Numbered from the stretch's first letter, positions 5,399-56,074 are shown. The stretch: DNA of 56,751 nucleotides from Rhodanobacter sp. (GCA_044463365.1 JBIQMK010000002.1:1-56751), one strand, 5' to 3'. Notes: a model not told the origin generated them from the sequence alone. Translations and numbers: made by a program.

Positions 5399-5411
5399 CC
5401 GACCGAACGCA

Positions 5412-6356: not shown

Positions 6357-6379
6357 CGCATGACGCAGAGGACTACCGA

Positions 6380-8248: not shown

Positions 8249-8368
8249 AGCATTCGTGCCGCGACGGCATGGCCGTTCCCGCTGATCGCTGATCGAGCAC
8301 CGTCTGTCCAGTCGCGCCACGGTGCCGTCGCTTGATTCCCCCGGCCTTCGCGCGCCGGTGGTGTCGTG

Positions 8369-8401
8369 TTGACTTCAATAAATCGGTTGGGTAACGTTAC
8401 C
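8369..8401 (+). promoter_or_regulatory. Sigma70-type promoter overlapped by a LacI-type operator
   Basis: TTGACT (8369-8374), 17 bp, TAACGT (8392-8397); the perfect palindrome GGTAACGTTACC (8390-8401) covers the -10. Confidence 0.72.
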
Positions 8402-8532
8402 AAGACTCGCGCAGCGCTCGAATCCGTGCGCTCTTTCGTTGCATTCATTGGCGCGGCGTGGACGGGCAGGGGAAAGCGCCTGCGGGACGCGTCACGCACA
8501 CATAAAAATCGAAAGGTCTGGGGGAGGTCCGA

Positions 8533-12039: not shown

Positions 12040-12049
12040 AACGAGGGAT

Positions 12050-12074
12050 CGTTGCCGCCCGTCGGGCGGCAACG
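12050..12074 (+). terminator. Hairpin downstream of GH2
   Basis: Perfect 11-bp stem cgttgccgccc-gtc-gggcggcaacg. Confidence 0.45.
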
Positions 12075-12135
12075 TGGTGCAAGGGCAATCGATCTCCAAC
12101 GCAGCATCGGCAGGGGGAGACTGGCGGCTCGGCTA

Positions 12136-12147
12136 GGTAGCGTTACC
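12136..12147 (+). promoter_or_regulatory. Second copy of the LacI-type operator
   Basis: GGTAGCGTTACC, 11/12 identical to the 8390 palindrome, 53 bp upstream of the TBDR start. Confidence 0.65.
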
Positions 12148-12200
12148 AGAAGAACAAGGTCAAACAACGAAGGTGCGGATCAAACCACGGAGGAGAAGGC

Positions 12201-15200: not shown

Positions 15201-15392
15201 ATGTACCAGGAGCCCACGTTCTACGTCGACGCCTCGGTCAGCTACAAGGTGACGCCGAACCTCGAGGTGTACGCGCAGGGCTCCAACCTCACCAACGAGC
15301 ACGAGCGCTACTACCTGGTGTGGCCCGACCAGGTGGCCAACACGACGCAGTTCGAGCGTCGCGTGATGCTGGGTGTGCGCGCCCACTTCTGA
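12201..15392 (+). CDS. TonB-dependent receptor (glycan-uptake type)
   Basis: RBS ggaggag; signal peptide; TonB box VVVSAGIRAS; plug DSISAVDIGKLPD..IADSLQRITGVQI; GNPNLDPW; C-terminal Phe (GVRAHF). Confidence 0.95.
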   Translation: MSRFNYGNFQMKPLVVAVATSLAIGCSAAAWAAPASGAAPSATPEQSTPATGQDQGAQDTADGKSTADQRGATRLQAVVVSAGIRASEQRSVELKRNATSIQDSISAVDIGKLPDVTIADSLQRITGVQINRSGGEGSSVNVRGLPQVGTTLNGESFLTAGSIVSVQPNFTDIPSQLFSGADVIKSPTASLLSSGITGTINLRTRRPWDLESGWTFAGAADGSHGSKVDKWNPEANGLIGFNDEGRWGVLVSAAYSDDTLENSTDGMDQYGGKFYGENAASATDGSGFLGGFNTAPIPSAIHQLGGGNVDVNGNGNAGDAFYGSQNFTAIDRQLERKRLGINASAQADLGAGFTLTSDAFFTRQKQFNRQTGYQLNSASWMGGTFVPVVSRDTGKTIQGAYNGDEGWNQRLYTTQVYQKWLGDLETYAENDVTNTISRNFNLQLDYDNGGNFTGSVRGITASAHETLMQSYVQFADADGTAWPNDPVDAAPPGTFIYPGGNRVFNPNGFAPNVVPVTVDMRGDHLAITLPQALQTFLSDPNNYALKTVSSEGNHERESSMNILRADGHYRFDDSGFKLDFGIRSSIRSASNINFNMVAPVYAGNGASDPNGCLVRWKAADVVLNGGGIDGACTAGNAQGFYRAGVISAQNPSQLPGIIGNNMRHDNSLAGVSGVSIYNLDPKAMDNPLAFQEALYPGEQRNVDPGGTWAVRLKERTAYLQAGFDSDGEVPISGNLGLRMVRTTLDVTQHAVGDAAPYGLLAADNGTIRSSRTYTDYLPALNLAFDFTPELKLRLAYSKNMMPLNLDQWGGGLTLNYGIDTSTPGSTLFRVLGGNSSGNPNLDPWRSSNYDASLEYYMSPSTMVSVAAFYIDVDSFINNGSVQNCALPDQDGVVRNHCVSINGPVQGGGNWLHGFEFGLKQDFKFLPGIWSNFGVGANFTFSPSNTGTDLAGNDIPFQDNSKKQANLVVWYQDDRFEARVAGNYRSKRAVSQNFGGIQGMEMYQEPTFYVDASVSYKVTPNLEVYAQGSNLTNEHERYYLVWPDQVANTTQFERRVMLGVRAHF

Positions 15393-15408
15393 ACGAAGTG
15401 AGGCTGTT

Positions 15409-15443
15409 GCGCCGGGGAGTCGCCACCAACGGCTTCCCGGCGC
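15409..15443 (+). terminator. Hairpin after TBDR
   Basis: gcgccggggagtcg ... cggcttcccggcgc imperfect stem. Confidence 0.35.
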
Positions 15444-15633
15444 CGCCACACGGATGGAAGGATGGCGCGGATGCGTATTCGTCGCGCTTTCCCATCGTCC
15501 CGAACGCCGAGAAGTGGCGTACTACACTCGGTCGACATTGGCCACAGGTTCGATCATCCCCGAGCGCGAGCGGCACAGCCGGCGGAATCCGAGCGTCGAG
15601 AGCCGACCATCACTAACCCACGGTGAGAGCGCC

Positions 15634-17991
15634 ATGTCTTCAACCCGAATTCTCATCCGCAGCCATTGGTGCCGGTTCGCCATCGGCCTGCTGACCCTGT
15701 CCTGCCTGTCGGGCGCGTACGCCGCGCCGGCTGAAGGGGTGGATGCCTGGTCGTCGGTCGATCCGCGTATCGGCACCGGCGGCGACGGCCACACGTTTCC
15801 CGGCGCCACGGTGCCTTTCGGCATGATCCAGCTGAGCCCGGACACGGCGATGCCGGATTTCAAGCATGCGTACAAATGGGCCGCCGGTTACCAGTACGGC
15901 GACAGCAGCATCATGGGCTTCTCGCATACGCATTTTTCCGGCTCCGGCCATTCGGATATGGGCGACGTGTTGCTGATGCCGATTGCCGGTGAGGTGCGGC
16001 TGGAGCCGGGCGATCCGGCCAGGCCGGGCAGCGGCTATCGCTCGCGCTACTCGCACGACAGCGAGGTGGCGCAGGCCGGTTATTACGCGGTGACGCTGAG
16101 CGATTACGGCGTGCGCGCCGAACTCACCGCGGGGCGCCGGGTCGGCTGGCATCGCTACACTTTCCCGGCGGGCAAGCCGGCGCATGTGCTGCTGGACCTG
16201 CGCCCGAGCATCTACGACTACGCCGGCAAGGTGCTATGGGCCAGAGCGCGCGTGCACGACGACGGCACGGTCACCGGTTGCCGCACCACGCGCGGCTGGG
16301 CACCCGGAAGGGAACTGTGCTTTGCGATGCGTTTCTCGCAGCCGATGACCTCGCGCCGCTTGCTCAACCGCGAAACCGATGTCGTCTACAAGGGCTTCAA
16401 GGGGCCGGGCAACCAGCCCGTGGACAACGATGCGCAGAACGGCCGCGCGCTGGTCGGCGTGTTCGATTTCGGCGCGTTGAAGAAGCCGCTGGAGGTGAAG
16501 GTGGCGATCTCGCCGGTGAGCGAGGCCAACGCCGTCGCCAACCTGGACAAGGATGGCACCGGTTGGGATTTCGACGCCCGCCGCGCGGAGGCGAAAGCCG
16601 CCTGGGCCAAGGCGCTGGCCGTGGTCGACATCGATGCGCCGAAGACGGCCCGGACGCAGTTCTACACCGCGCTGTACCACGCGATGCTGTCGCCGACGCT
16701 GAGCATGGACGTCAATGGCGATTACCGCGGGCCGGATCATGCGGTGCACCGGGCCAAAGGCTTCGAGTTCTATTCCACCTGGTCGCTGTGGGACGTGTAT
16801 CGCGCGCAGCAGCCGTTGATGGTGTTGCTGCATCCCGCGCGCAGCACCGATTTCATCCGCTCGCTGATCGCCGCACGCGAGGCCAGCCCGTTCGGCATCC
16901 TGCCGGTGTGGGCGTACCAGGGCCTGGAGACGTGGTGCATGATCGGCTACCACGCGGTGCCGGTGATCGCCGACGCGTACATCAAGGGCGTGCGCGGTTT
17001 CGATGCGGCCAAGGCGCTGGAGGCCATGGTGGCCAGCGCCAGCTACGGCTCCTACGGCGACCTGGCCGATTACATGAAGCTGGGCTACGTACCGATCGAC
17101 AAGGAGCCCGAAGGCGCCTCGAAGACGCTGGAATACGCCTACGACGACTGGTCGCTGGCGCAGATGGCGAAGGCGATGGGCAAGACCGATGTCGCCGCCA
17201 CGTTCGAAAAGCGCGCCGGCAACTGGAAGAACGCGTGGGACCCGCAGACCGGCTTCATGCGCGCCCGCCTCGCCGACGGCACGTTCCGCGAGCCGTTCGA
17301 TCCCACGGCGGCTGGCTACGGCAGCGATTTCACCGAGGGCAACGCCTGGCAATACTCGTGGTACGTGCCGCAGGATGTGGCCGGCCTGATCGGCGCGATG
17401 GGCGGCGATGAAAAATTCGTGGCCAAGCTCGATGCCCTGTTCGACGCCAAGGTCGACCCCGCGCACTTCAAGCACGTGGAGGACATCACCGGCCTGATCG
17501 GCTGGTACGCCCACGGCAACGAGCCCAGCCACCACATCGCCTACCTCTACGATTACGCCGGCGCGCCGTGGAAGACGCAGGCGCGGCTGAAGCAGATCAT
17601 GGCCAGCCAGTACGCGGCGCGCCCCGATGGCCTCAGCGGCAACGACGACCTGGGCCAGATGTCGGCCTGGTACGTGTTCACCGCGCTGGGGTTTTATCCG
17701 GTGGCGCCGGGTAGCGATGAATACGCGATTGGCCGCCCCTTCGTGGCGCGTGCCAGCCTGCATGTCGGCAACGGCCGCACGTTCACGGTCAGCGCCTCGC
17801 CGCTGGATGACGCCCACCCTTACGTGGGCGCAGTGACGCTCAACGGCAAACCGCTGGCGCGCACCTTCCTGCGTCACGCCGAGATTGTCGCGGGCGGCGA
17901 GTTGCACTTCACCATGCAGGCTCAGCCCGACAAGCAGTGGGGCATGGATGTTTCGGCGCGTCCCGCCGCGATGAGCGCCTACGGGCGATAA
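15634..17991 (+). CDS. GH92 alpha-mannosidase (putative alpha-1,2)
   Basis: VDPRIGTGGDGHTFPGATVPFGMIQLSPDT, GFSHTHFSGSG, SLWDVYR, CMIGYH, SKTLEYAYDD, TEGNAWQY, HGNEPSHH, GNDDLGQMSAWY. Confidence 0.95.
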   Translation: MSSTRILIRSHWCRFAIGLLTLSCLSGAYAAPAEGVDAWSSVDPRIGTGGDGHTFPGATVPFGMIQLSPDTAMPDFKHAYKWAAGYQYGDSSIMGFSHTHFSGSGHSDMGDVLLMPIAGEVRLEPGDPARPGSGYRSRYSHDSEVAQAGYYAVTLSDYGVRAELTAGRRVGWHRYTFPAGKPAHVLLDLRPSIYDYAGKVLWARARVHDDGTVTGCRTTRGWAPGRELCFAMRFSQPMTSRRLLNRETDVVYKGFKGPGNQPVDNDAQNGRALVGVFDFGALKKPLEVKVAISPVSEANAVANLDKDGTGWDFDARRAEAKAAWAKALAVVDIDAPKTARTQFYTALYHAMLSPTLSMDVNGDYRGPDHAVHRAKGFEFYSTWSLWDVYRAQQPLMVLLHPARSTDFIRSLIAAREASPFGILPVWAYQGLETWCMIGYHAVPVIADAYIKGVRGFDAAKALEAMVASASYGSYGDLADYMKLGYVPIDKEPEGASKTLEYAYDDWSLAQMAKAMGKTDVAATFEKRAGNWKNAWDPQTGFMRARLADGTFREPFDPTAAGYGSDFTEGNAWQYSWYVPQDVAGLIGAMGGDEKFVAKLDALFDAKVDPAHFKHVEDITGLIGWYAHGNEPSHHIAYLYDYAGAPWKTQARLKQIMASQYAARPDGLSGNDDLGQMSAWYVFTALGFYPVAPGSDEYAIGRPFVARASLHVGNGRTFTVSASPLDDAHPYVGAVTLNGKPLARTFLRHAEIVAGGELHFTMQAQPDKQWGMDVSARPAAMSAYGR

Positions 17992-42931: not shown

Positions 42932-43288
42932 AACAAGTGAAAAGAAGGCGGTTAGCGCCTTCTCGACGCCGCTTGCATGGCTTTCGTCCATGAATGTAAG
43001 CTAAACGAGTCGTGGGGAGCTGACCGGATTCTGGCCGGATACGCGCAGTAGCAGGTGGAGCGACATTTTTGCGTGAAGCCGCTCTCTTGCGGCACGTTCC
43101 GCGGGCCGCCAACGGCGGTTTGCGGTGCGGACGTGATGTAGACGCATAGAACGAGGGGACATCGGGGGGACTGGCACGTCGAGAGTGTGGTCGCGGACGC
43201 ATGGCGCCGCGCCGCGGGTCCATGCGCCCGAATGCCGGAAGCCCCGCCCCCAGCAACAAGTTGCCCTTCCTCTGAGGAGACAAAAAGC

Positions 43289-43801
43289 ATGGCCAAGCAG
43301 AGTAGTCAGAAGTTCATCGCCAGAAACAGGGCGCCGCGCGTGCAGATCGAGTACGACGTCGAGGTCTACGGCGCGCAGAAGAAAGTCCAGGTGCCGTTCG
43401 TGATGGGCGTGATGTCGGACCTGTCCGGCGTCAACAACAGCGAGCTGCCGTCGATCGAGGAGCGCAAGGCACTGGAGATCGACGTCGACAATTTCGACAA
43501 CCGCCTGCAGTCGATGAAGCCGCGCGTGTCCTTCGCCGTACCCAACACGCTGACCGGCGAGGGCAACCTCAACGTGGACATCACCTTCGAGAGCATGGAC
43601 GACTTCTCGCCCGCCGCCGTGGCCCGCAAGGTCGCGCCCGTGGCCAAGCTGCTGGAGGCACGCACCCAGCTGGCCAACCTCGGCACCTACATGGACGGCA
43701 AGGCCGGTGCGGAGAAGCTGATCGCCCAGGCCATCAACGACCCCGCATTGCTGCAATCGCTGGTATCGGCGGCCAAGCCCGCCGACACGGACGGAGAGTA
43801 A
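43289..43801 (+). CDS. tssB: T6SS sheath small subunit TssB
   Basis: RBS gaggag; SSQKFIARNRAPRVQIEYDVE, PFVMGVMSDLSG, DDFSP. Confidence 0.96.
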   Translation: MAKQSSQKFIARNRAPRVQIEYDVEVYGAQKKVQVPFVMGVMSDLSGVNNSELPSIEERKALEIDVDNFDNRLQSMKPRVSFAVPNTLTGEGNLNVDITFESMDDFSPAAVARKVAPVAKLLEARTQLANLGTYMDGKAGAEKLIAQAINDPALLQSLVSAAKPADTDGE

Positions 43802-43805
43802 ACAC

Positions 43806-45299
43806 ATGGCAACCGAAACACAGGCCGAACAGGGCGGCGCCACCGAAACCCTCGAAGCGGGCGACTTCGCCGCGCTGCTGAGCAAGGAATTCAAACCCAA
43901 GAGCGAGCGCGCCAAGGAGGAAGTCGAATCCGCCGTGCGCACGCTGGCCGAGCAGGTGCTGAACAAGGCCGACATCGTCTCCGACGACGTCACCCAGACC
44001 ATCAACGCCTACATCGCCGAGATCGACCGCAAGCTCAGCGAGCAGATCAACCAGATCATGCATCACGCCGATTTCCAGAAGCTGGAAAGCGCCTGGCGCG
44101 GCCTGCACCACCTGGTCAACAACACCGAGACGGACCAGCAGCTGAAGATCCGCGTGATGAACATCTCCAAGAAGGAGCTGGGCAAGACGCTGAAACGCTA
44201 CAAGGGCACCGCGTGGGACCAGAGCCCGATCTTCAAGAAGATGTACGAAGAGGAATACGGCCAGCTCGGCGGCGAGCCGTACGGTTGCCTGGTCGGCGAC
44301 TACTACTTCGACCACAGCCCGCCCGACGTGGAGCTGCTCAGCGGCATCGCCCAGGTGGCGGCGGCGGCGCATGCGCCGTTCATCGCGGCGGCCAACTCGA
44401 CGCTGATGGGCATGGACAGCTGGAACGAGCTCTCCAACCCGCGCGACCTGGCCAAGGTGTTCTCGACGCCCGATTACGCCGCCTGGCGTTCGCTGCGCGA
44501 ATCGGATGATTCCAAGTACCTGGCCCTGGCCATGCCGCGCACGCTGTCGCGCCTGCCGTACGGCGCGGCCACCAACCCGGTCGAGGAGTTCAACTTCGAG
44601 GAGGACACCGCCGGTGCCGATTCCTCCAAGTACACCTGGCAGAACGCGGCGTATTCGATGGCGGTCAACATCAACCGCTCGTTCAAGGCCTACGGCTGGT
44701 GCTCGCGCATCCGCGGCATCGAGTCCGGCGGCGCGGTGGAGGGCCTGCCGGCGCATACCTTCCCCACCGACGACGGCGGTGTGGACATGAAGTGCCCCAC
44801 CGAGATCGCGATCACCGATCGCCGCTCGGCCGAACTGGACAAGATGGGCCTGATGCCGCTGGTGCATCGCAAGAACTCCGACATGGCCGCCTTCATCAGC
44901 GCGCAGTCGCTGAACAAGCCGGAGGAGTACGACGATCCCGACGCCACCGCCAACGCCGCCCTCGGCGCGCGCCTGCCGTACATGTTCGCCTGCTGCCGCT
45001 TCGCGCATTACCTGAAGTGCATCGTGCGCGACAAGATCGGTTCGTTCAGCAGCCGCGAGCAGATGCAGAACTGGCTGACCAACTGGGTCACCAACTACAT
45101 CGACGGCGACCCGGCCAACTCCAGCGAAGAGACCAAGGCACGCAAGCCGCTGTCGGCGGCCGAGGTGGTGGTGGAGGAAGTGGAAGGCGCGCCGGGGTAC
45201 TACACCTCGAAGTTCTACCTCAAGCCGCATTACCAGCTCGAGGGCCTGACGGTGTCGCTGCGACTGGTTTCGCGCCTGCCCTCCGCGGCCAAGGCCTGA
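43806..45299 (+). CDS. tssC: T6SS sheath large subunit TssC
   Basis: FQKLESAWRGL, EEYGQLGGEPYG, AHAPF, KCPTEIAI, RDKIGS, PHYQLEGL. Confidence 0.97.
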   Translation: MATETQAEQGGATETLEAGDFAALLSKEFKPKSERAKEEVESAVRTLAEQVLNKADIVSDDVTQTINAYIAEIDRKLSEQINQIMHHADFQKLESAWRGLHHLVNNTETDQQLKIRVMNISKKELGKTLKRYKGTAWDQSPIFKKMYEEEYGQLGGEPYGCLVGDYYFDHSPPDVELLSGIAQVAAAAHAPFIAAANSTLMGMDSWNELSNPRDLAKVFSTPDYAAWRSLRESDDSKYLALAMPRTLSRLPYGAATNPVEEFNFEEDTAGADSSKYTWQNAAYSMAVNINRSFKAYGWCSRIRGIESGGAVEGLPAHTFPTDDGGVDMKCPTEIAITDRRSAELDKMGLMPLVHRKNSDMAAFISAQSLNKPEEYDDPDATANAALGARLPYMFACCRFAHYLKCIVRDKIGSFSSREQMQNWLTNWVTNYIDGDPANSSEETKARKPLSAAEVVVEEVEGAPGYYTSKFYLKPHYQLEGLTVSLRLVSRLPSAAKA

Positions 45300-45418
45300 T
45301 ACCCGGCGTCGAGCCACGGTTCAAATGATGTACCCGCGACAGGAGCATCGATCGCGTCGAGCGCAGGTCTCGGTCGGACGGTAATCCTTTATCAAACAGG
45401 AAACAGAGGAGAGGTTTC

Positions 45419-45919
45419 ATGGCATTTGACATGCACATCAAGTTCGGCAAGGGCAAGGTCGAGATCAAGGGCACTTCCACCCATGCCAAGCACAAGGACG
45501 AGATCCCGGTGTTGGCGTGGTCGTGGGGTGCGTCCAACTCCGGCAACCTGCACCAGGGCGGTGGCGGTGGCGGCGGCAAGGCCAACGTCCAGGACATTTC
45601 GCTCACCAAGTACGTGGACGGCAGCTCCAACGTGCTGTTGAACGCCGTCTGCACCGGCGCCCGCGTCGAGCAGGCCTGGCTGTACGTCACCAACGCCACC
45701 GGTGAGCAGACCGACTTCCTCACCATCGAGCTGAGCGAAGGCGTGCTGATCACCTCGTTGAGCACCGGCGGCAGCGGCGGCGAAGACAAGCTGACCGAAA
45801 ACATCACCCTGCACTTCGGCAAGTTCAAGTTCATGTACCAGCCGCAGAAGGACGACGGCTCCAAGGATGGCGGTACCAAGGACTTCACCTACGACATGCA
45901 GAAGGTCGCCGCGGCCTGA
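45419..45919 (+). CDS. hcp: T6SS tube protein Hcp (TssD)
   Basis: IKGTS..HKDEI..WSWG, GGGGGKANVQDISLTKYVD, ENITLHF. Confidence 0.95.
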   Translation: MAFDMHIKFGKGKVEIKGTSTHAKHKDEIPVLAWSWGASNSGNLHQGGGGGGGKANVQDISLTKYVDGSSNVLLNAVCTGARVEQAWLYVTNATGEQTDFLTIELSEGVLITSLSTGGSGGEDKLTENITLHFGKFKFMYQPQKDDGSKDGGTKDFTYDMQKVAAA

Positions 45920-45926
45920 TGTACCA

Positions 45927-45962
45927 CCCTGCTGGCCCGGCTTCGGGCCAGCAGGGCGTTTG
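45927..45962 (+). terminator. Hairpin after hcp (partial terminator/stabiliser)
   Basis: 13-bp perfect stem ccctgctggcccg-gctt-cgggccagcaggg followed by cgtttg. Confidence 0.6.
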
Positions 45963-45999
45963 TCCCGACTTCGTTCTCCCTATCCAGTGGTGATTGATC

Positions 46000-46797
46000 G
46001 TGGATGCAGACCCCCAGAACCTGCTGCAAGCCGGCCGGGTAAACGAGGCATTGCAGCAGCTGACGGCGCAGGTGCGCGGCAAGCCTGCCGATGCCAAGTC
46101 CCGCGTGTTCCTGTTCCAGTTGCTTGCCTTGCTGGGCCAGTGGGAGCGGGCGCAGAACCAGTTGAACGTCAGCGGCGAGCTCGATCCCGGCAATACGCTG
46201 ATGGTCAATGCCTACACCCAGGCGCTGCAGGGCGAGCTGATGCGCGCGCAGGTCGTGGAAGGCGAGCGTTCGCCCTCGTTGATTGGCGAACCCGAACAAT
46301 GGATGGCGCTGCTGCTGCAGGCGTTCAAGCTGGATGCCCAGGGCAGGCACCCGCAGGCGGCACCGCTGCGCGAGCAGGCGTTCGAGCAGGCGCCGGCCGT
46401 GGCCGGCCGTATCGATGACACGCCGTTCGAGTGGATCGCCGATGCCGATCCGCGGTTTGGCCCGTGCCTGGAGCTCGTCGTCAACGGCGGCTACGCCTGG
46501 GTCCCGTTTGCGCGTTTGCAGACGCTGAAATTCGAATCGCCCACCGATCTGCGCGACAAGGTGTGGGCGCCGGTACAGATCACCTGGACCAACGGCGGCC
46601 AGGCCGTGGGCTTCATCCCTTGCCGCTATCCCGATTCGGAGCGCTCCGCCGACAGCGACGTGGTGCTGGCGCGCAAGACGGACTGGCTGAGCCCCGCCGA
46701 CGACTTCTACGTGGGCTCCGGACAGCGCATGTTCGCCACCGATGCCGGCGAATACCCCTTGCTGGACGTCCGCACCATTTCCTTCGACAGCGTTTGA
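46000..46797 (+). CDS. tagJ: T6SS accessory protein TagJ (ImpE/SciE)
   Basis: LFQLLALLGQWERA, FEWIADADPRFGP, DLRDKVW, IPCRYP, GSGQR; GTG start chosen (TTG 45994 alternative). Confidence 0.9.
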   Translation: MDADPQNLLQAGRVNEALQQLTAQVRGKPADAKSRVFLFQLLALLGQWERAQNQLNVSGELDPGNTLMVNAYTQALQGELMRAQVVEGERSPSLIGEPEQWMALLLQAFKLDAQGRHPQAAPLREQAFEQAPAVAGRIDDTPFEWIADADPRFGPCLELVVNGGYAWVPFARLQTLKFESPTDLRDKVWAPVQITWTNGGQAVGFIPCRYPDSERSADSDVVLARKTDWLSPADDFYVGSGQRMFATDAGEYPLLDVRTISFDSV

Positions 46798-46815
46798 CCA
46801 GGGCGTACGCGAGCC

Positions 46816-47319
46816 ATGGCCGAACTGACTACCCAGGAACGATTGCAGCCCTCGCTGCTCGACCGGCTGACCGATGACGAGCCGGGCAAGGCGGACGAGA
46901 GCCGCGAAAAAAGGGTGATCTCGGCCACGCGTTTGCGCGACTGCGTGACGCGGGACATCTCCTGGCTGCTCAACTGCGTGCACCTGGACAACGATATCGA
47001 CCTGGAGCTCTACCCGGAGGTGGCGCGGTCGGTGCTGAATTTCGGCATTCCCGACCTTACCGGCATGGTCCTGGCCGGCATGGACGCCAGTGCGCTGCAG
47101 CGCCAGATCAAGGACGCCATCGTGGCCTTCGAACCGCGGCTCACCAGCAGCACGTTGCGGGTGACGGTACAGGCCGATCGCGCGCGGATGGATCACCAGT
47201 CCCTGGTGTTCAACATCGAATCGGAAATGTGGGCGCAGCCGATTCCGCTGAATCTCTACCTGAAAACCGAAGTGGACCTGGAAACAGGCAAGTTCAACGT
47301 TTCTGAAAGTTTTGGCTGA
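46816..47319 (+). CDS. tssE: T6SS baseplate TssE
   Basis: LQPSLLDRLTD, WLLN, SVLNFGIPD, FEPRL. Confidence 0.93.
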   Translation: MAELTTQERLQPSLLDRLTDDEPGKADESREKRVISATRLRDCVTRDISWLLNCVHLDNDIDLELYPEVARSVLNFGIPDLTGMVLAGMDASALQRQIKDAIVAFEPRLTSSTLRVTVQADRARMDHQSLVFNIESEMWAQPIPLNLYLKTEVDLETGKFNVSESFG

Positions 47320-47324
47320 CCCCG

Positions 47325-49208
47325 ATGGACCCGCGCCTGCTGCGTTACTACAACCGGGAATTGCAGCACGTCCGCGAGATGGGCGGCGAGTTCGCGCGCG
47401 AGTATCCGAAGATCGCCGGCCGCCTGGGCATGGAAGGCTTCGAGTGCGCCGACCCGTACGTGGAGCGGCTGCTGGAAGGCTTCGCGTTCCTGGCCGCGCG
47501 CGTGCAGTTGAAGCTCGATGCGCAGCAGCCGGTGTTCACCCAGCACCTGATGGAGATGATCTATCCGCACTACCTGGCGCCGGTGCCTTCGATGGCCGTG
47601 GTGCAGTTGCAGGCGGACCTGAAGGACAGCGCGCTGGCGACCGGGCATACCGTGCCCCGCGATACGGCCATGCGCAGCCTGATCGGGCGCGACGACCGCA
47701 CCGCCTGCGAATACCGCACGGCGCACGACGTCACCCTGTGGCCGCTGCAGATCACCGAAGCGAAGTATTTCGAAACGCCCGCCGCCATTGCCGCCGCGGG
47801 CGTACCGATGCCGTCGAACGCGACGGTGCGCTCGGGCCTGCGCCTGAAGTTCCAGGTGACCGCCGGCGCGCAGGCCAACATGCTGACGCTGGACGAGCTG
47901 CCGCTGTTCATCGCCGGCGCCGACGAACTGCCCAAGCGGCTGTACGAACAACTGCTGGCCAATGCGGTGGGCGTGGTGGTGCGCACGCAAGGCGCCAGCG
48001 GCCCGATCGATGAGCATCTCGATGGCGCCAGCATCCACAGCAAGGGTTTCGACGACAGCGAGGCACTGATTCCGTACAGCGGCCGCTCCTTCAGCGGCTA
48101 TCGCCTGCTGCAGGAATATTTCGCCTGTCCGGAACGCTTCCTGTTTGCCGTGTTCACCGGCCTGCGCAAGGTGCTGGCGCGCTCCAACAGCAGCGAATTC
48201 GAGATCGTGGTGCTGTTCGACCGCAGCGTGAACCGGCTGCACAACGCCGTGGATGCGGGCAACTTCCGCCTGTTCTGCACGCCGGCGATCAATCTGTTTC
48301 CGCGCCGCGCCGATCGCATCCATCTGCAGCAGGGCAAGACCGAATACCACGTGCTGGCCGACCGCACCCGGCCGATGGATTTCGAGGTCCACAGCGTCAG
48401 CAACGTCGAGGGTTTCGGCGACCGGCAGGAGCCCGAGCAGCGCTTCCAGCCGTTCTACGGCGGTGACGAGCGCACCTGGCACAGCGGCAACGCGGCGTTC
48501 TACACCGTGCGCCGCGAGCCGCGGTTGCTGTCGTCGCGGCAGAAGCTGCATGGCGCACGTTCCAGCTATGTCGGCAACGAGATGTTCATCTCCCTGGTCG
48601 ACGCGGCCGATGCGCCGTACTCCACCCAGTTGCGGCAGATCGGCATGCAGTTGCTGTGCACCAACCGCGACCTGCCGCTGCAGATGCCGGTGGGCAAATC
48701 GCATACCGATTTCACCCTGGACGTGGGCGCGCCGGTGCAGTCGATCCGCTGTGTGGCCGGCCCGACCAAGCCGCGGGCGTCGGTGGCGGTGGGCGAAACC
48801 GCCTGGCGATTGCTGAGCCACCTGCAGCTGAACTACGTCTCGCTGCTGGGCGACGGCAACGAGGATGGCGCCGCCGCGCTGCGCGAGATGCTGACGCTCT
48901 ACTGCGACGAGTTCGATTCCGGCGCCCGGCGCCAGGTCGAGGGCATCAAGGCGGTCCGTTCGCAGCCGATCGTGCGGCGCATTCCGGTGCCCGGACCGAT
49001 CACGTTCGGGCGCGGCCTGGAGATCACGCTCACCTGCGACGACGGCGCCTTCGAGGGCACCGGCGCCTTCCTGCTTGGCTCGGTCATGCAGCACTTTTTC
49101 GCGCGCTACGTTTCGGTCAATTCGTTTACCGAAACCGTACTGCGCACCCTGGAACGCAACGAGGTGGCCCGATGGCCGGTGCGGCTCGGCAAACGACAGA
49201 CGCTGTAG
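47325..49208 (+). CDS. tssF: T6SS baseplate TssF
   Basis: YYNREL..EFA..YPKIA, DPYVERLLEGFAFL, GYRLLQEYF, CTPAINLF, SVNSF. Confidence 0.96.
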   Translation: MDPRLLRYYNRELQHVREMGGEFAREYPKIAGRLGMEGFECADPYVERLLEGFAFLAARVQLKLDAQQPVFTQHLMEMIYPHYLAPVPSMAVVQLQADLKDSALATGHTVPRDTAMRSLIGRDDRTACEYRTAHDVTLWPLQITEAKYFETPAAIAAAGVPMPSNATVRSGLRLKFQVTAGAQANMLTLDELPLFIAGADELPKRLYEQLLANAVGVVVRTQGASGPIDEHLDGASIHSKGFDDSEALIPYSGRSFSGYRLLQEYFACPERFLFAVFTGLRKVLARSNSSEFEIVVLFDRSVNRLHNAVDAGNFRLFCTPAINLFPRRADRIHLQQGKTEYHVLADRTRPMDFEVHSVSNVEGFGDRQEPEQRFQPFYGGDERTWHSGNAAFYTVRREPRLLSSRQKLHGARSSYVGNEMFISLVDAADAPYSTQLRQIGMQLLCTNRDLPLQMPVGKSHTDFTLDVGAPVQSIRCVAGPTKPRASVAVGETAWRLLSHLQLNYVSLLGDGNEDGAAALREMLTLYCDEFDSGARRQVEGIKAVRSQPIVRRIPVPGPITFGRGLEITLTCDDGAFEGTGAFLLGSVMQHFFARYVSVNSFTETVLRTLERNEVARWPVRLGKRQTL

Positions 49209-50194
49209 CGCTGCAGAACGCGCTGCGCGACCGGCCGGAGGACTTCGAATTTTTCGAAGCCATCCGCCGGCTCGAGTGCGCCTATCCGGAGCAGCCGCGC
49301 GTGGGCGAATCCACCAAGCCCGCCGAGGACATGGTGCGCCTGTGCCACACGCCGTCGCTGTCGTTCGCGCCGCGCGCCATCGACCGTTTCGAGCCCGGCG
49401 GGGAAGGCGCGCCCGCGCGCATGCACGGACTGTTCTTCGGCCTGTTCGGCCCCAACGCGCCATTGCCGCTGCACCTGACCGAATACGCGCTGGATCGCCA
49501 GCACAACGCGAAGGATTCCACCTTCATCGCGTTCGCCGACATTTTCCATCACCGCATGACCAGCCTGTTCTATCGGGCGTGGGCCGATGCGCAACCGACG
49601 GTGCAGTTCGATCGCCCGCAGGAGGATCGATTCGGCACCTACATGGGTGCGCTGGTGGGCCTGGCCACGCCCGGCCTGGGCGACCGCGACGCGATGCCGG
49701 ACCAGTACAAGCGCTTTTTTGCGGGACGGTTGCTGGTGCAGGCGCGCAACGCCGAGGGTTTGCGCGCACTGCTGCAGGATTTCTTCCGCATCCCGGTGCG
49801 CATCGTGGAATTCGTGGCCGAGTGGATGCGTCTGCCGCCGACGGCGCACCTGCGGCTGGGTCGCTCCGGCGAGGTGGCCGGGCTGGGCCTTACCGCGGTG
49901 ATGGGCGAATACGTGTGGGGCGCGCAGCAGCGCTTCCGGCTGCGGCTGGGCCCGCTCGATCGCGTGCAGTTCAACAACTTCCTGCCCGGCGGCGAAGCGC
50001 TGCGGCAACTGGTGGCGGCGGTGAAAACCTACATCGGGGAAGAGAAAGCGTGGGACGTGCAGCTGGTGCTGAACCGGGACGAGGTGCCGGTGACGCGCCT
50101 GGGGCAGGCCGGCCGATTGGGCCTGACCACCTGGATGGGCCGGCGCCAGCACGACGGCGATGCCGACCAGGTGGTGCTCAGGCCGGCGGGATGA
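49172..50194 (+). CDS. tssG: T6SS baseplate TssG
   Basis: FFEAIRRLE, GLFGPNAPLPLHLTEY, DIFHHR, FLPGG; overlaps the tssF end. Confidence 0.94.
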   Translation: MAGAARQTTDAVALQNALRDRPEDFEFFEAIRRLECAYPEQPRVGESTKPAEDMVRLCHTPSLSFAPRAIDRFEPGGEGAPARMHGLFFGLFGPNAPLPLHLTEYALDRQHNAKDSTFIAFADIFHHRMTSLFYRAWADAQPTVQFDRPQEDRFGTYMGALVGLATPGLGDRDAMPDQYKRFFAGRLLVQARNAEGLRALLQDFFRIPVRIVEFVAEWMRLPPTAHLRLGRSGEVAGLGLTAVMGEYVWGAQQRFRLRLGPLDRVQFNNFLPGGEALRQLVAAVKTYIGEEKAWDVQLVLNRDEVPVTRLGQAGRLGLTTWMGRRQHDGDADQVVLRPAG

Positions 50195-50290: not shown

Positions 50291-53029
50291 ATGGCGGAAA
50301 TCACTCGCAGCGCGCTGTTCGGCAAGCTCAACAAGCTGGCGTACCGGGGCATCGAAAGTGCCACCGTGTTCTGCAAGCTGCGCGGCAATCCCTATGTCGA
50401 GCTGGTGCACTGGATCCACCAGATCCTGCAGCTGCAGGATTCGGACCTGCACCGCATCATCAAGCAGTTCAACCTCAACCCGTCCAACCTGGCGCGTGAC
50501 GTCACCGATGCGCTGGACCGGTTGCCGCGCGGCTCCTCTTCAATCTCCGATCTCTCCAGCAACGTGGAGGAGGCGGTGGAGCGCGGCTGGGTGTTCGCCA
50601 CGCTGATGTTCGGCGAGGCGCAGGTACGTACCGGCTACCTGATCGTGGGCGTGGTGCGCACGCGCCACCTGCGCAACGCGCTGGTGGCCATCTCGGCGGA
50701 GTTCGACAAGATCAAGCCCGAGGCACTGGTGGAGAAATTCGCCGAGGTGGTTGCCGGCTCGCCCGAGGACGGCCAGAGCGCAAGCGACGGCTTCCATCTC
50801 GGCGGCGCCGGCGCGCCGGGCGAAGCCAGCGGCGCCATGGGCCCGGCACAGATGGGCAAGCAGGAGGCGCTCAAGCAATTCACCGTCGACCTCACCGAGC
50901 AGGCTCGCAGCGGCAAGATTGACCCGATCGTTGGCCGCGACGAGGAGATCCGCCAGGTGGTCGACATCCTGATGCGCCGCCGCCAGAACAATCCGATGCT
51001 GGTCGGTGAAGCCGGTGTCGGCAAGACCGCCGTGGTCGAAGGCTTCGCGCTGCGCATCGCCAACGGCGACGTGCCGCCGCCGCTGAAAGACGTGGAGCTG
51101 CGCACGCTGGACGTGGGCCTGCTGCAGGCCGGCGCCAGCATGAAGGGCGAGTTCGAGAACCGCCTGCGCCAGGTGATCGAGGAAGTGCAGGCCAGCCCCA
51201 GGCCGATCATCCTGTTCATCGACGAGGCACACACCCTGGTGGGTGCCGGCGGCGCGGCCGGCACCGGCGACGCCGCCAACCTGCTCAAGCCCGCGCTGGC
51301 GCGCGGCAACCTGCGCACCGTGGGCGCCACCACCTGGGCCGAGTACAAGAAACACATCGAGAAGGACCCCGCGCTCACCCGCCGCTTCCAGACCGTGCAG
51401 GTCGACGAGCCCAGCGAGGAGAAGGCCATCCTGATGATGCGCGGCGTCGCCAGCGTGATGGAGAAGCACCATCGCGTGCAGATCCTGGACGAGGCACTGG
51501 AGGCGGCGGTCAAGCTGTCGCACCGCTACATTCCCGCGCGCCAGTTGCCGGACAAGTCGGTGAGCCTGCTGGACACCGCCTGCGCCCGCGTCGCCATCAG
51601 CCAGCACGCCGTGCCTGCCGAAGTGGATGACACCCGCAAGCGCATCCAGGCGCTGGAAGTGGAGCTGGGCATCATCGCCCGCGAGAAGACCGTGGGCGTG
51701 GACGTGGCCGAGCGCGAAGCGGCCGCCAGCGAGAAGCTGGCCGACGCGAAGACACGGCTGGAAACGCTGGAGGTCAACTGGCAGGTGGAGAAAGGCCTGG
51801 TCGAGAAGATCCTTGGCCTCCGCGCCCGCCTGCGCGGCGACGGTGCACCGGTCGAGGGCACCGGCAGCGCGCTGGAGCAGGCGGCCGACGCCGAAGCCGG
51901 CGAGGTGGCCGTGGCCAGTGCCGCGCTCACCGAGGCCGAGCGCGTCGCCGCGCTGGACGAGCTGAAAAGCCTGCAGGCCCAGCTCGCCGAATCCCAGGGC
52001 GAGAACCCGCTGATCCTGCCCACCGTCGACTACGTGGCGGTCGGTTCGGTCGTTTCCGACTGGACGGGCATCCCCGTGGGCCGGATGGTCAAGAGCGAGC
52101 TGGAAACCGTGATGAGCCTGGCCTCCATCATGGGCAAGCGCGTGATTGGCCAGGACCACGCGATGGAGATGATCGCGCGCCGCATCCAGACCTCGCGTGC
52201 CGGTCTGGACAACCCCAGCAAGCCGATCGGCGTGTTCATGCTCGCCGGCACCTCCGGCGTGGGCAAGACCGAAACCGCGCTGGCGCTGGCCGAGGCGCTG
52301 TACGGCGGCGAGCAGAACCTCATCACCATCAACATGAGCGAATTCCAGGAGGCGCACACCGTCTCCACGCTCAAGGGCGCGCCGCCCGGCTACGTGGGCT
52401 ACGGCGAAGGCGGCGTGCTCACCGAAGCCGTGCGCCGCAAGCCGTATTCCGTGGTGCTGCTGGACGAGGTCGAGAAGGCCCACCCCGACGTGCACGAGAT
52501 CTTCTTCCAGGTGTTCGACAAGGGCGTGATGGAAGACGGCGAAGGCCGCCAAATCGACTTCAAGAACACCCTGATCCTGCTCACCACCAACGCCGGCACC
52601 GACCTCATCGCCAGCATGTGCAAGGACCCGGAGCTGATGCCCGAACCCGAAGGCATGGCCAAGGCGCTGCGCGAGCCACTGCTGAAAATCTTCCCGCCTG
52701 CGCTGCTGGGCCGCCTGGTGACGATTCCGTATTACCCACTCAGCCCCGAGATGCTGGGCAAAATCGTGGAGTTGCAGATCAACCGCATCAAGAAACGCGT
52801 CGAAGCTCGCTACAAGATTCCGTTCGATTGCAGCGAGGACGTGGTCAAGCTGGTGGTCGAACGCTGCACCGAGACGGAATCGGGCGGTCGCATGATCGAC
52901 GCCATTCTCACCAATTCCATGCTGCCGGATATCTCGCGGGCATTTTTGACCCGGATGATAGCGGGCGAGGGGATTGCGAAGGTGGATGTGACTGTTGAAG
53001 ACGGCGAATTTTCGTACCGGTTTGCCTGA
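50291..53029 (+). CDS. tssH: T6SS AAA+ ATPase TssH/ClpV
   Basis: LFGKLN, DILMRRRQNNP, GEAGVGKT, GTSGVGKTET, INMSEFQEAH, ESGGR. Confidence 0.97.
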   Translation: MAEITRSALFGKLNKLAYRGIESATVFCKLRGNPYVELVHWIHQILQLQDSDLHRIIKQFNLNPSNLARDVTDALDRLPRGSSSISDLSSNVEEAVERGWVFATLMFGEAQVRTGYLIVGVVRTRHLRNALVAISAEFDKIKPEALVEKFAEVVAGSPEDGQSASDGFHLGGAGAPGEASGAMGPAQMGKQEALKQFTVDLTEQARSGKIDPIVGRDEEIRQVVDILMRRRQNNPMLVGEAGVGKTAVVEGFALRIANGDVPPPLKDVELRTLDVGLLQAGASMKGEFENRLRQVIEEVQASPRPIILFIDEAHTLVGAGGAAGTGDAANLLKPALARGNLRTVGATTWAEYKKHIEKDPALTRRFQTVQVDEPSEEKAILMMRGVASVMEKHHRVQILDEALEAAVKLSHRYIPARQLPDKSVSLLDTACARVAISQHAVPAEVDDTRKRIQALEVELGIIAREKTVGVDVAEREAAASEKLADAKTRLETLEVNWQVEKGLVEKILGLRARLRGDGAPVEGTGSALEQAADAEAGEVAVASAALTEAERVAALDELKSLQAQLAESQGENPLILPTVDYVAVGSVVSDWTGIPVGRMVKSELETVMSLASIMGKRVIGQDHAMEMIARRIQTSRAGLDNPSKPIGVFMLAGTSGVGKTETALALAEALYGGEQNLITINMSEFQEAHTVSTLKGAPPGYVGYGEGGVLTEAVRRKPYSVVLLDEVEKAHPDVHEIFFQVFDKGVMEDGEGRQIDFKNTLILLTTNAGTDLIASMCKDPELMPEPEGMAKALREPLLKIFPPALLGRLVTIPYYPLSPEMLGKIVELQINRIKKRVEARYKIPFDCSEDVVKLVVERCTETESGGRMIDAILTNSMLPDISRAFLTRMIAGEGIAKVDVTVEDGEFSYRFA

Positions 53030-53082
53030 AGCAAGGCGAACCCGATTGTGAATTTCAGTTTCCCTATCTAGGAGTCGAGCTT

Positions 53083-54165
53083 ATGGCGGGGTTTGGAGCT
53101 TTTGCCAACAAGCGCTTGTGTGACGTGGTATTCCCGGGTACGCATGACGCGGGTATTTACGGCAACGATCTTGGCGGCGTGATCAAGACACAGAATCTGA
53201 GCATTGGCGAGCAGGCGAAGGCGGGCGTGCGCTATTTCGACCTGCGCATCATCAACGTCAAGACTGGGAACAAGCTGGAGCAAAAGGCTTACCACGCCCC
53301 TGGCTTCAGCCGGAAGGAGGACAAGAAGCTCGGTTCGTATCAGACGCCGGCTACAGGCGGTGGCGTGGGTAGCGACCGCCTGACGCAGATGCTCGACCAG
53401 GCTCGCGAATTCGTGATGAAAAACCCGGAGGAGTTTCTCATCCTGCGCTTCTCCAAGTGCGGTGACATGGTAGAGGTGGCCAACCAGTGCATTTTGAAAC
53501 TGGGTGACCAGCGGTTCGCGAGCAACGTCAACCTCAACGTGGCCACGATCGCCTCGCTGCAGGGCAAGGTCATCGTGGTTTTCGACAGCGGTGATTTCAA
53601 CAAATTTCCCGCACTGCTCAAGAGCACGCCCGGAATCCTTCCGGTCAAGGCCATGTTCAACAAGTCCGGCGATGGGCACGCCGAATACAGTCCGCATATG
53701 TGGGGCTTGCAGTATTTCGGCAGCTACTCCAACACCGGCGACAAGAAGAAGAACATCAAGAAGCAGCTGAACATCCTTTCGCAGGGGCCGATCAGCAGCC
53801 CGGAACTGCTGGGCATGATGTACTGGACGCTCACCAGCAACTGGAAAGAGGGCCTGCACAAGCTCTTCTACAGCATCGAGAACCGCGACAAGGGTATGTG
53901 GACGTCGTCGCAGAAGGCACTGACCGATGCGTGGAAAGCCGGCGTAAAGCAGCACATCATCGCCAGGGCCGGCGTGTTGCATCAGCAGTGGCGTGCCAAC
54001 GGATTCCCGCCGCAGGCTGTCGATCGGGTGTCCAAGTCATTCATGCCCAACATCGTCATGATCGATTTCGCCGATCCCAATCGTTGCGCCACGATCTGGA
54101 ACCTCAATCTTGCGACCGAGGACATGATTGGAAAATTGCGCGATGACCTGCTGGTGACAGGGTGA
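53083..54165 (+). CDS. PI-PLC-like phosphodiesterase (X-domain), no signal peptide; candidate T6SS effector
   Basis: RBS aggag; FPGTHDAG, TQNLSIGEQ..GVRYFDLR, YH, NPEEFLILRFS, GKVIV, C-terminal NIVMIDF. Confidence 0.8.
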   Translation: MAGFGAFANKRLCDVVFPGTHDAGIYGNDLGGVIKTQNLSIGEQAKAGVRYFDLRIINVKTGNKLEQKAYHAPGFSRKEDKKLGSYQTPATGGGVGSDRLTQMLDQAREFVMKNPEEFLILRFSKCGDMVEVANQCILKLGDQRFASNVNLNVATIASLQGKVIVVFDSGDFNKFPALLKSTPGILPVKAMFNKSGDGHAEYSPHMWGLQYFGSYSNTGDKKKNIKKQLNILSQGPISSPELLGMMYWTLTSNWKEGLHKLFYSIENRDKGMWTSSQKALTDAWKAGVKQHIIARAGVLHQQWRANGFPPQAVDRVSKSFMPNIVMIDFADPNRCATIWNLNLATEDMIGKLRDDLLVTG

Positions 54166-54324
54166 CCGGCGAGAACGCCATGCGTACGCACCGGCTTGCC
54201 TCCAGGTCGCACCAGGTTCCGCTGGCAACAGGATCGGGATCAGCTGTTTCGTCCACGGCCGTCGATGGCTGCTGGCGACAACGGTCGCAGGGAGGCCAGG
54301 GGCGCTTTTGAGCGTTGTTGTGCG

Positions 54325-54366
54325 ATTGGGCAATCGGGCGAGGTCCGCTTCTCCCGATTGCCCAAT
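54325..54366. other. Long hairpin upstream of PAAR
   Basis: attgggcaatcggg / cccgattgcccaat, 14-bp perfect stem with an imperfect extension. Confidence 0.6.
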
Positions 54367-54395
54367 TCTTCAAATGAATTTTCCGGGAGTCGACC

Positions 54396-54683
54396 ATGCA
54401 ACCTGCCGCCCGCCTTACCGACATGCACACCTGTCCGATGACCACCGGGCCGGTGCCGCACGTGGGCGGGCCGATTTCCGCGCCCGGTGTGCCGAAAGTG
54501 CTGATCGGCGGCCTGCCTGCCGCCTGCATGGGCGACATGGCGGTTTGCGTCGGGCCGCCGGATTCGATCATCAAGGGCTCCACGAAAGTGCTCATCGGCG
54601 GCAAACCGGCCGCGCGCATGGGCGACAGCACGGCGCACGGCGGCGTGATCGTATTGGGTTGCATGAAGGTGTTGATAGGTTGA
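54396..54683 (+). CDS. PAAR-repeat spike-tip protein (stand-alone)
   Basis: MQPAARLTDMHTCP, PHVGGPI, PAACMGD, GKPAARMGDSTAHGG; 95 aa. Confidence 0.95.
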   Translation: MQPAARLTDMHTCPMTTGPVPHVGGPISAPGVPKVLIGGLPAACMGDMAVCVGPPDSIIKGSTKVLIGGKPAARMGDSTAHGGVIVLGCMKVLIG

Positions 54684-56074
54684 TGGCAAGGGGAAGAGGC
54701 GTGGCATCGAAGAACGCGAACGTGAGCTGGCGCGCGCCGGCACCGGCGCAGCCGGCGTATGCGGCGGTGCTGGAGCGCGCGATGAAGGCACATCAGGCCC
54801 ACGACCTGGACACGGCCGAGCGGCTGTACGGCGAGGTGCTGGAGCTGCGCGCGGCGCAGCCCGATGCGCTGCATTACCTGGGCGTGCTGATGCACCAGCG
54901 CGACCGCAGCGACGAAGCCGTGGCGCTGATCCAGACCGCGCTGAAGATCACCCCGAAACACCCCGACGCGCACAACAACCTGGGCAACATCCACAAGGAG
55001 TGCGGTCGCCTGGCCGAAGCCGAGGCGTGCTACCGGCGCGCGCTGGAGTGCGGTCCCACGCATTACAACGCGCTCAGCAACCTAGCCTTCGTGCTGGAAG
55101 TGCAGGAGCGGCCCGACGAGGCATTCGAGGCCTATGCCCGACTGTTGCGCGAGGCGCCGACGTTCGCCCACGGGCAATACATGATGGGCCTGTTCCTGCG
55201 CAATTTCGCCCAGAACGTGGAACACGTCGAACAGTCGATCGAATGTTTTCGCGAGGCCTACCGGCTGGATCCGCGCAACGTGCGTGCGCTGGAAGGGCTG
55301 GGGGTTTCGCTGTACACGCTGGGCCGCCACGACGAGGCCCGGGATGTCTACCGCAGCTGGCTCGGGCGCGAGCCGGACAACCCGATACCGCGCCACATGC
55401 TGGCGGCCACCGGCGGCGCGGAAATTCCGCCGCGCGCGGACGAGGCCTACGTGCGCAACGTGTTCGACGGCTTCGCCGACAGCTTCGACGAGCAGTTGCT
55501 GAAGAACCTCGACTACCGCGCTCCGGAGGTGCTGACCGACGCGCTGGGCAGCGTGCTGCCCGCGGCCGACGGCAGCCTCGACGTGCTCGACGCCGGTTGT
55601 GGCACGGGCCTGTGCGCGCCCTTGTTGCGCCCGCGCGCCCGCACGCTGGTGGGCGTGGACCTTTCCGGCGGCATGATCGAAAAGGCGCGCGCCCGCGGTG
55701 GCTACGACGAGTTGGTGGTGGCGGAACTCACCGCGTATCTGCAGACACATCCCGCGGCCTACGACGTGGTGATCTCGGCCGACACGCTGATCTATTTCGG
55801 CGACCTGGCGCCCGTGCTGAAAGCGGCGCACGGTGCCTTGCGGCCGGGTGGCTGGCTGGCCTTCACGCTGGAGGTGCTGGAGGGCGAGGGCGACCGCTAC
55901 GAGTTGTCCTCCAGCGGGCGCTACCAGCACACCCGCGACCACACGCAGGCGATCGTCGAGGCCGCGGGTTTCGACCGCATCACGATCGGCATGGACATGT
56001 TGCGCAAGGAGCACGGCAAGATCGTGTCGGGCTGGGTGGTGCTGGCACGGCGCGGAGGGAACGACATGCGCTGA
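54683..56074 (+). CDS. TPR-repeat protein fused to class I SAM-dependent methyltransferase (COG4976-like)
   Basis: TPRs (PDALHYLG, PDAHNNLGN); YVRNVFDGFADSFDEQL..LDYRAP, VLDAGCGTG, GVDLS..M, ADTLIYFGDL, GRYQH; TGATG coupling to PAAR (GTG 54701 alternative). Confidence 0.88.
   Translation: MARGRGVASKNANVSWRAPAPAQPAYAAVLERAMKAHQAHDLDTAERLYGEVLELRAAQPDALHYLGVLMHQRDRSDEAVALIQTALKITPKHPDAHNNLGNIHKECGRLAEAEACYRRALECGPTHYNALSNLAFVLEVQERPDEAFEAYARLLREAPTFAHGQYMMGLFLRNFAQNVEHVEQSIECFREAYRLDPRNVRALEGLGVSLYTLGRHDEARDVYRSWLGREPDNPIPRHMLAATGGAEIPPRADEAYVRNVFDGFADSFDEQLLKNLDYRAPEVLTDALGSVLPAADGSLDVLDAGCGTGLCAPLLRPRARTLVGVDLSGGMIEKARARGGYDELVVAELTAYLQTHPAAYDVVISADTLIYFGDLAPVLKAAHGALRPGGWLAFTLEVLEGEGDRYELSSSGRYQHTRDHTQAIVEAAGFDRITIGMDMLRKEHGKIVSGWVVLARRGGNDMR

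Follow-up and report, generated by a model that had tools for sequence, protein, structure and literature searches.

Bacterial Ca-independent PI-PLCs (EC 4.6.1.13), such as PlcA of Listeria monocytogenes (2plc/1aod) and the enzymes of Bacillus cereus (1ptd) and Staphylococcus aureus (3v18), share a catalytic set of His, Asp, Arg, His and Asp. In the B. cereus enzyme, His32 acts as general base and catalysis also needs His82; when present in the cytosol this PI-PLC kills mammalian cells, and the His32Ala exchange abolishes killing (10.1101/677229). Its inositol contacts are D198, R163, K115, W178, S234, D180 and Y200, and the catalytic His and Arg act on the inositol 2-OH (PMC4934513). The lipid-attacking cargo described for type VI secretion systems (T6SS) is of another kind: Tle1-5 are PLA1 or PLA2 alpha/beta hydrolases or PLD, and the Tle effectors described there come with Tli genes (PMC12421835); the lipid toxins named in the accessible text of PMC3482391 are GDPD, CAPTase and PLA2. 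At the phagosome, Francisella OpiA, a kinase making PI3P, acts on PI and PI3P (PMC7641602), and the CoVes of Vibrio coralliilyticus, T6SS effectors lacking immunity genes, are toxic to yeast but not to E. coli (PMC11371242). According to a 2019 review, group 3 T6SS clusters have a variable region besides TagJ, the system of X. citri acts against amoebae through elusive effectors, and a Dyella branch of the group is possibly antibacterial (PMC6653060). Among extracellular contractile systems, accessory cluster 568 of Photorhabdus/Xenorhabdus eCIS (at least 8 rows of the PMC8213781 supplement) is listed as PI-PLC-like and is not linked to T6SS. In the accessible T6SS literature no effector with PI-PLC, phospholipase C or FYVE character is described, although survey supplements and subscription papers could hold such a family; neither 'PLC' nor 'inositol' appears in the main text of PMC12994826, PMC10433429, PMC11297309 or PMC11371242.

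Here we analysed a window of 56,751 nucleotides, the whole stretch of Rhodanobacter sp. DNA under study, in which an open reading frame for a 360-aa protein lies inside a T6SS cluster (Table 1). The frame starts with ATG, has AGGAG ahead, and sits 53 bp 3' of tssH and 230 bp 5' of PAAR; downstream of PAAR come a TPR-methyltransferase gene and then vgrG. A preliminary description had placed the gene between tssH and PAAR, and the profile matches of both borders confirm this. The GC content of the gene is 0.574, compared with 0.61-0.69 in its neighbours. By TagJ, FHA and gene order, the T6SS is assigned to group 3. The closest named relative is Rhodanobacter caeni, with 92% protein identity and the same gene order, and the cluster of the window goes on at contig C110 of the same assembly, which matches the downstream part of the R. 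caeni cluster (blastn, 91.6% over 5.6 kb). Neither a promoter nor a terminator was found at 52900-54500. Expression data consisted of three runs with small shares of the region, of which the two labelled as RNA correspond to contigs of relatives that barely touch the gene and so carry no information on it. The TPR and SAM-methyltransferase gene is itself conserved between PAAR and vgrG across Gamma- and Betaproteobacteria with the same T6SS type.

Table 1. Features of the locus (window coordinates) and FYVE proteins in the corresponding slot of related loci (locus coordinates)
Feature	Position	Strand	Basis or remark
tssB, tssC, hcp, tagJ, tssE, tssF, tssG of TagJ-bearing (group 3) T6SS	43187..50194	+	tssB PF05591, tagJ PF07024, tssF PF05947; tssC, hcp, tssE and tssG presumably, judged by their sequence features and order
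tssH (ClpV), upstream border of cargo slot	50291..53029	+	TIGR03345, 1258 bits
PI-PLC-fold gene, candidate T6SS cargo effector	53083..54165	+	360-aa product with pI 9.4 and without signal peptide
His21-Asp22, counterparts of B. cereus His32 (general base) and Asp33	53143..53148	+	PI-PLC alignment, invariant 119/119
Asp53-Leu-Arg55, matching B. cereus Asp67 and Arg69	53239..53247	+	alignment, invariant 119/119
His71, matching B. cereus His82	53293..53295	+	alignment, invariant 119/119
Basic beta-hairpin insertion after His71, residues 72-99	53296..53379	+	model strands 75-80, 84-89, 94-99; gap relative to Listeria
Q210-Y211-x-G213, likely at B. cereus Q197-D198-K-Y200	53710..53721	+	invariant; placed from motifs and the order of strands
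Asp328, counterpart of B. cereus Asp274	54064..54066	+	alignment including hhalign, invariant 119/119
Gap without conserved ORF, no immunity gene	54166..54395	.	230 bp
PAAR, downstream border of cargo slot	54396..54683	+	PF05488
TPR + SAM-methyltransferase gene	54683..56074	+	kept in T6SS clusters of the same type
vgrG, cut by contig end	56156..56751	+	PF05954
Slot FYVE protein, L163	5781-6674	-	
Slot FYVE protein, L164	4154-5041	-	
Slot FYVE protein, L166	738-1649	+	
Slot FYVE protein, L153	6512-7492	-	
Slot FYVE protein, L160 (G115)			

The 360-aa protein is predicted to form the distorted TIM barrel of metal-independent bacterial PI-PLCs. Relatives number 371 at E<=0.001. A single-sequence search matched the Listeria PI-PLC with E 1.3e-4, and a profile of 119 sequences, run against PI-PLCs of the PDB, reached E 8e-12 for S. 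aureus and E 3e-7 for B. cereus. An AlphaFold model (pLDDT 89.4, pTM 0.90) gave E 1.2e-10 to 1aod in Foldseek, with the top 24 rows made up of Listeria, Staphylococcus and Bacillus PI-PLCs and no others. In structure comparison (VIA), the best Z scores were 21.9, for Listeria PlcA (rmsd 3.3 over 253 residues), and 21.6, compared with at most 14.2 for Ca-dependent PLCs (13-14 for eukaryotic PLC, Streptomyces 3h4x and Pseudomonas 5fyo) and at most 12.1 for PLD and GDPD folds, GDPD and sphingomyelinase D folds lying at Z 9-12. In Ca-dependent PI-PLCs calcium takes the place of the catalytic Arg, as the title of 1t6m hints; in the present family this Arg is invariant. Nor does the structure match the alpha/beta hydrolase or HKD phospholipase D folds of Tle1-5, its matches being to TIM barrels only. 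Structural identity to the Ca-independent PI-PLCs is low (12-20%) and, unlike those enzymes, the protein is tied to T6SS and has no Sec signal peptide. Pfam and NCBIfam scans of the window protein gave no match; PF00388 likewise does not match it, and matches 30 of the 119 aligned members weakly (best E 1.3e-4).

The motifs G-T-H21-D22, D53-L-R55, Y-H71 and I-D328-F contain the residues that align with the B. cereus catalytic set, and all six (H21, D22, D53, R55, H71, D328) are invariant in 119/119 aligned relatives. The motif set, the missing signal peptide and the PI-PLC likeness that had been read from the sequence at the outset thus all hold: a signal peptide is excluded because the first catalytic His already stands at residue 21, and in 189/197 full-length relatives it stands at residue 16-26. 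The family also has extra C-terminal helices and a hairpin insertion ~20 residues longer than in Listeria PlcA and net positive in 114/119 members, which we infer to be a candidate membrane- or phosphate-binding element; the proteins are basic overall, with a pI above 8.5 in 118/121. Among 7993 scored candidates no full-length member was fused to VgrG, PAAR or Rhs, and 11 distant proteins were found. Two relatives bear an N-terminal domain of the eCIS_core/DUF4157 type (P0062 by Pfam, P0168 by likeness), a marker of injected toxins (PMC11297309). A shorter sister family of 320-346 aa (P0254, P0261, P0268, P0271) has the same GSHD, YWT and NVxMYDF motifs.

The gene occupies a hypervariable slot for cargo between tssH and PAAR; it is an exchangeable accessory and does not belong to the core machinery. 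When Rhodanobacteraceae loci are compared with the window, identity is 84-90% for TssH and 34-92% for the PLC. In all 20 sampled PLC-less clusters with the same TssF type, the slot holds 1.7-6.7 kb of other, toxin-like ORFs, and 15 of 34 ORFs picked from these slots have Pfam matches: M35 protease, Tse2-type ADP-ribosyltransferase, non-specific endonuclease, deaminases and Ntox30, as well as C58 protease, Tle1-like, NlpC/P60, FYVE and two DUFs. Lipase_3 with DUF6795 is also among the slot cargo of relatives. The slot thus brings together FYVE proteins, which lend the anti-eukaryote proposal of the preliminary description indirect support, and antibacterial-type cargo, which speaks against it; the proposal stands in part.

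Linkage of the family to T6SS extends well beyond Rhodanobacter. A GTDB scan yielded 145 relatives, and 80 of these loci, from six phyla, were taken for the locus counts. T6SS genes are present in 78 of the 80 carriers, within 8 kb in 36 and elsewhere in the genome in 42. In the 36 cluster-linked loci the gene mostly follows directly on tssH; of the 44 carriers with no T6SS gene within 8 kb, 41 encode TssF elsewhere and one more TssC, which leaves two carriers, both metagenome bins, with neither. The background is far lower: TssF occurs in 11/151 Gemmatimonadota, 19/201 Acidobacteriota and 98/221 genomes of the window's family, compared with 13/13 TssF-positive Gemmatimonadota carriers and 9/9 Acidobacteriota carriers with a T6SS marker. 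In blind samples, the PLC family was found in 3/151 Gemmatimonadota, all TssF-positive and two of them already known as carriers, and in 1/201 Acidobacteriota, this being the centre genome itself. Within the window's own family, full-length members are encoded in 17/98 TssF-positive and 0/123 TssF-negative genomes, a count that leaves out 13 genomes with weak or partial matches, among them G163 (a split copy); in each of the 17, the gene and tssF are no more than about 10 kb apart. Related genomes are not independent samples, and these co-occurrence counts and the Fisher tests on them therefore overstate significance. In a quick tree, from which L008 was left out for its stops, cluster-linked and orphan copies interleave, with 12 changes. 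The expectation that homologues would co-occur with T6SS is borne out.

An immunity gene next to the effector is a trait of Tle1-5, and the present family differs on this point. Clustering of neighbours across the same 80 loci disclosed no conserved partner following the PLC gene, and hence no adjacent cognate immunity gene. The 230-bp gap in the window contains an ORF of 43-49 codons and out-of-frame overlaps and nothing else; the equivalent gap in R. caeni is 98 bp with no ORF of at least 40 codons, and the gaps between the PLC gene and the core genes are 52/98 bp in L001, 121/63 bp in L029 and 4/88 bp in L057. Other cargo in the same slot does come in pairs, Lipase_3 with DUF6795 and M35 with a small secreted protein, so pairs are visible where present. 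The absence of an immunity ORF downstream, noted from the window at first, therefore holds across these loci. Three candidate partners were rejected: the c14 family, present in 7/80 loci, also occurs in 13/20 PLC-less clusters; DUF6795 is the partner of Lipase_3; and a small protein, c24, is mostly paired with M35. In lacking immunity genes, the family resembles the CoVes.

On endosomes and phagosomes, PI3P is the ligand of FYVE fingers. In the window's family a FYVE finger scored above the cut-off in 5/221 genomes, and all five lie in the tssH-PAAR slot (Table 1); in G079 the FYVE gene directly follows the PLC gene, and in G071 it directly precedes PAAR on a contig without tssH. No FYVE protein was found in the window's own genome. 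The slot proteins have ~300 aa and a C-terminal finger with intact WxxD, RHHCR and RVC motifs, behind at least three different N-terminal domains with no Pfam match; they are candidate T6SS effectors that may be targeted to the phagosome. Prokaryotes very seldom have the domain, which accounts for 50 of 252 million domain counts (PMC8213781 supplement), and its presence in the same slot is a pointer to eukaryotic phagosome membranes.

We propose that the PI-PLC-fold protein is a T6SS cargo phospholipase C that enters eukaryotic cells by injection and would cleave inositol lipids there. That it travels as non-covalent T6SS cargo we regard as very probable, and a eukaryotic target as probable. 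After loading, the protein would be injected into a eukaryotic cell, most probably a grazing amoeba or another phagotroph, or else a neighbouring eukaryote. There the basic protein would dock on anionic leaflets facing the cytosol, and the acid-base pair His21/His71, together with Arg55, would cleave an inositol lipid much as the Bacillus PI-PLC does, yielding diacylglycerol and a cyclic inositol phosphate; granted cargo status and a eukaryotic target, docking and cleavage of this kind are rather probable. Either the PI/phosphoinositide pool needed for phagosome maturation would be drained or the cell would die. For the chain as a whole, we hold the case for and against to be about evenly balanced.

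The headgroup pocket bears on which lipid is cut. Mapping of the pocket relies on motifs and strand order because hhalign against seven annotated PI-PLC domains aligned the N-terminal half and Asp328 and left residues 170-320 unplaced. On this mapping, D198 of B. cereus corresponds to invariant Y211, Y200 to invariant G213 and S234 to invariant T249, whereas R163 falls at variable residue 168 (Glu in Listeria) and K115 at D/S124; at the Arg of the 'IMRLK' strand of Listeria the family likewise has a basic residue, R/K122. The pocket thus looks remodelled relative to the B. cereus PI-PLC. That plain PI is the substrate is not assured, because the inositol-binding D198, Y200 and R163 appear lost; and surface GPI anchors, also named in the preliminary description, are a poor fit because an injected protein would act in the cytosol, with the anchors at the surface. 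The same changes, together with the new invariant aromatics, would suit an anti-eukaryote T6SS cargo with a substrate other than an inositol lipid, be it a sphingolipid, a lipid with a choline or ethanolamine headgroup, or a soluble phosphodiester, bound in an aromatic-rich pocket (Y211, Y247, W248, W273). Such a substrate would also accord with the many carriers that probably make PI unharmed, and the superfamily does include GDPD and sphingomyelinase D folds. Nevertheless, PI-specific enzymes are by far the nearest in fold (Z 21.9, compared with 12.1), His21 and Arg55 are kept, as is the likely S234 equivalent T249, and if the substrate were a lipid common in bacteria, the producer would need immunity. 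We consider this alternative unlikely.

The preliminary description had explained the lack of an immunity gene by a producer free of PI. This agrees with the window's own genome, in which (at 89% completeness) inositol-1-phosphate synthase was sought and not found. It is not general, because 32 of 80 carriers have the synthase, some beside a gene resembling PIP synthase. The synthase is absent from 32 of the 36 cluster-linked carriers and present in 28 of the 44 orphan carriers, and a CDP-alcohol transferase adjoins it in 10 of 12 inspected loci. Among Gemmatimonadota, 13/13 carriers have the synthase, and the four inspected loci (L125-L128) all have a PIP-synthase-like neighbour scoring 155-170 bits, at or below the cut-off of 170, which suggests that these genomes may make phosphatidylinositol. 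Alphaproteobacterial CDP-alcohol transferases match PIP synthase weakly, and one has a neighbour resembling inositol-phosphate cytidylyltransferase. A signal-less canonical PI-PLC would harm a cell that makes PI; as many carriers probably do so, and given the apparent remodelling of the pocket, the enzyme likely acts on an inositol lipid specific to eukaryotes, such as a phosphorylated PI, or else likely needs a host activator.

These counts bear equally on a second alternative, an antibacterial effector aimed at PI-containing bacteria (Actinobacteria, some Bacteroidota) and harmless to producers without PI. Soil is a habitat common to producers and actinobacteria, the slot also holds antibacterial cargo, and neither the window's genome nor most cluster-linked carriers have the synthase. 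The Gemmatimonadota carriers, with synthase, PIP-synthase-like neighbours and no immunity gene, argue against it, and sister cells would be at risk; we think it distinctly unlikely.

Another possibility is that the protein accompanies the T6SS without ever being secreted, as an accessory or regulatory phosphodiesterase of the cytoplasm. Such a role would fit the lack of a signal peptide, of an immunity gene and, in most members, of a known loading domain, and the TPR-methyltransferase gene provides a precedent for a non-core gene riding with the cluster. It fits poorly with the missing PLC gene in 20/20 sampled clusters of the same type, with a PLC divergence decoupled from that of TssH, with the interleaving of cluster-linked and orphan copies in the quick tree, and with the DUF4157 fusions, and is improbable on these grounds. 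Least plausible, and very improbable, is a scavenging enzyme, not a toxin, exported by the T6SS to release phosphate or inositol phosphate from GPI anchors or from lipids of prey or the environment. There are T6SSs that serve nutrient acquisition (PMC6653060), such an enzyme could do without an immunity gene, and an alpha-mannan locus lies 35 kb upstream. Against this, the 8-kb flanks contain no conserved gene for a transporter or for inositol use, the mannan locus lies outside those flanks, the slot mates are toxins, and Sec export would presumably be simpler for this purpose.

Returning to an injected phospholipase C that acts on eukaryotic inositol lipids, one may extend the proposal to the slot as a whole. 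It might serve as a phosphoinositide-directed toolkit against phagocytes, with a PLC retooled for phosphorylated inositides such as PI3P or activated by the host, beside FYVE-targeted enzymes homing to the phagosome. We offer this extension tentatively and regard it as doubtful; if it were true, bacteria from soil and fresh water, belonging to at least five phyla, would share a way to survive being eaten. The PLC would differ in chemistry from OpiA, a kinase where the present protein is a predicted hydrolase.

As the T6SS lipase effectors described in the accessible literature are PLA or PLD, an enzyme of phospholipase C type on a TIM barrel would add new chemistry, and the T6SS-linked PI-PLC-fold family, if injected and active as proposed, would represent a type VI lipase toxin of a new kind. 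Together with the slot FYVE proteins it supplies concrete candidates for the elusive anti-amoeba effectors of group 3 T6SS. The family further marks T6SS use in the little-studied phyla Gemmatimonadota and Acidobacteriota, and its carriers include the cultured, harmless strains Rhodanobacter caeni JCM 16242 and Frateuria terrea CGMCC 1.7053. Should the pocket prove to recognise lipids in a new way, cell biology could gain a tool from it, like the Bacillus PI-PLC (10.1101/677229).

Several further genes were observed in and around these loci. In endofungal Mycetohabitans, a PI-PLC-like gene ends an eCIS locus (L113 3905-4999) and a PI-PLC-like Rhs tip stands beside SpvB/TcaC (L112 3940-6888); only the N-terminal 60-70 residues of the two proteins align with the window family, and neither is linked to T6SS. 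Within the window, positions 927-17991 hold an alpha-mannan utilisation locus of two GH92, GH76, two GH2 and a TonB-dependent receptor, which may be a sign of feeding on fungal cell wall; a tie to the PI-PLC-fold gene was considered, and no link was shown. Two stand-alone ORFs precede the PLC gene at about 6250-7930 (+) in L018 and L019, one with a papain-like Cys/His pattern and the other with a HExxH motif, and neither has an obvious immunity gene. In G207 (L167 6066-7001 (-)), the ORF after the PLC gene has no Pfam match and begins with 'IISWN', which we take to be an EEP-like motif. EEP proteins have been flagged near group 3 vgrG genes (PMC6653060). The c14 family, finally, comprises Lys-rich proteins of 340-450 aa with hydrophobic stretches that occupy the same slot, in L006 (9373-10383 (+)), in L004 (4985-6229 (+)) and among the PLC-less loci L137-L156. 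It has no Pfam or useful NCBIfam match, and its nearest Atlas clusters are unnamed, with a weak look-alike of RTX haemolysin at 0.86; c14 is possibly a pore-forming effector.
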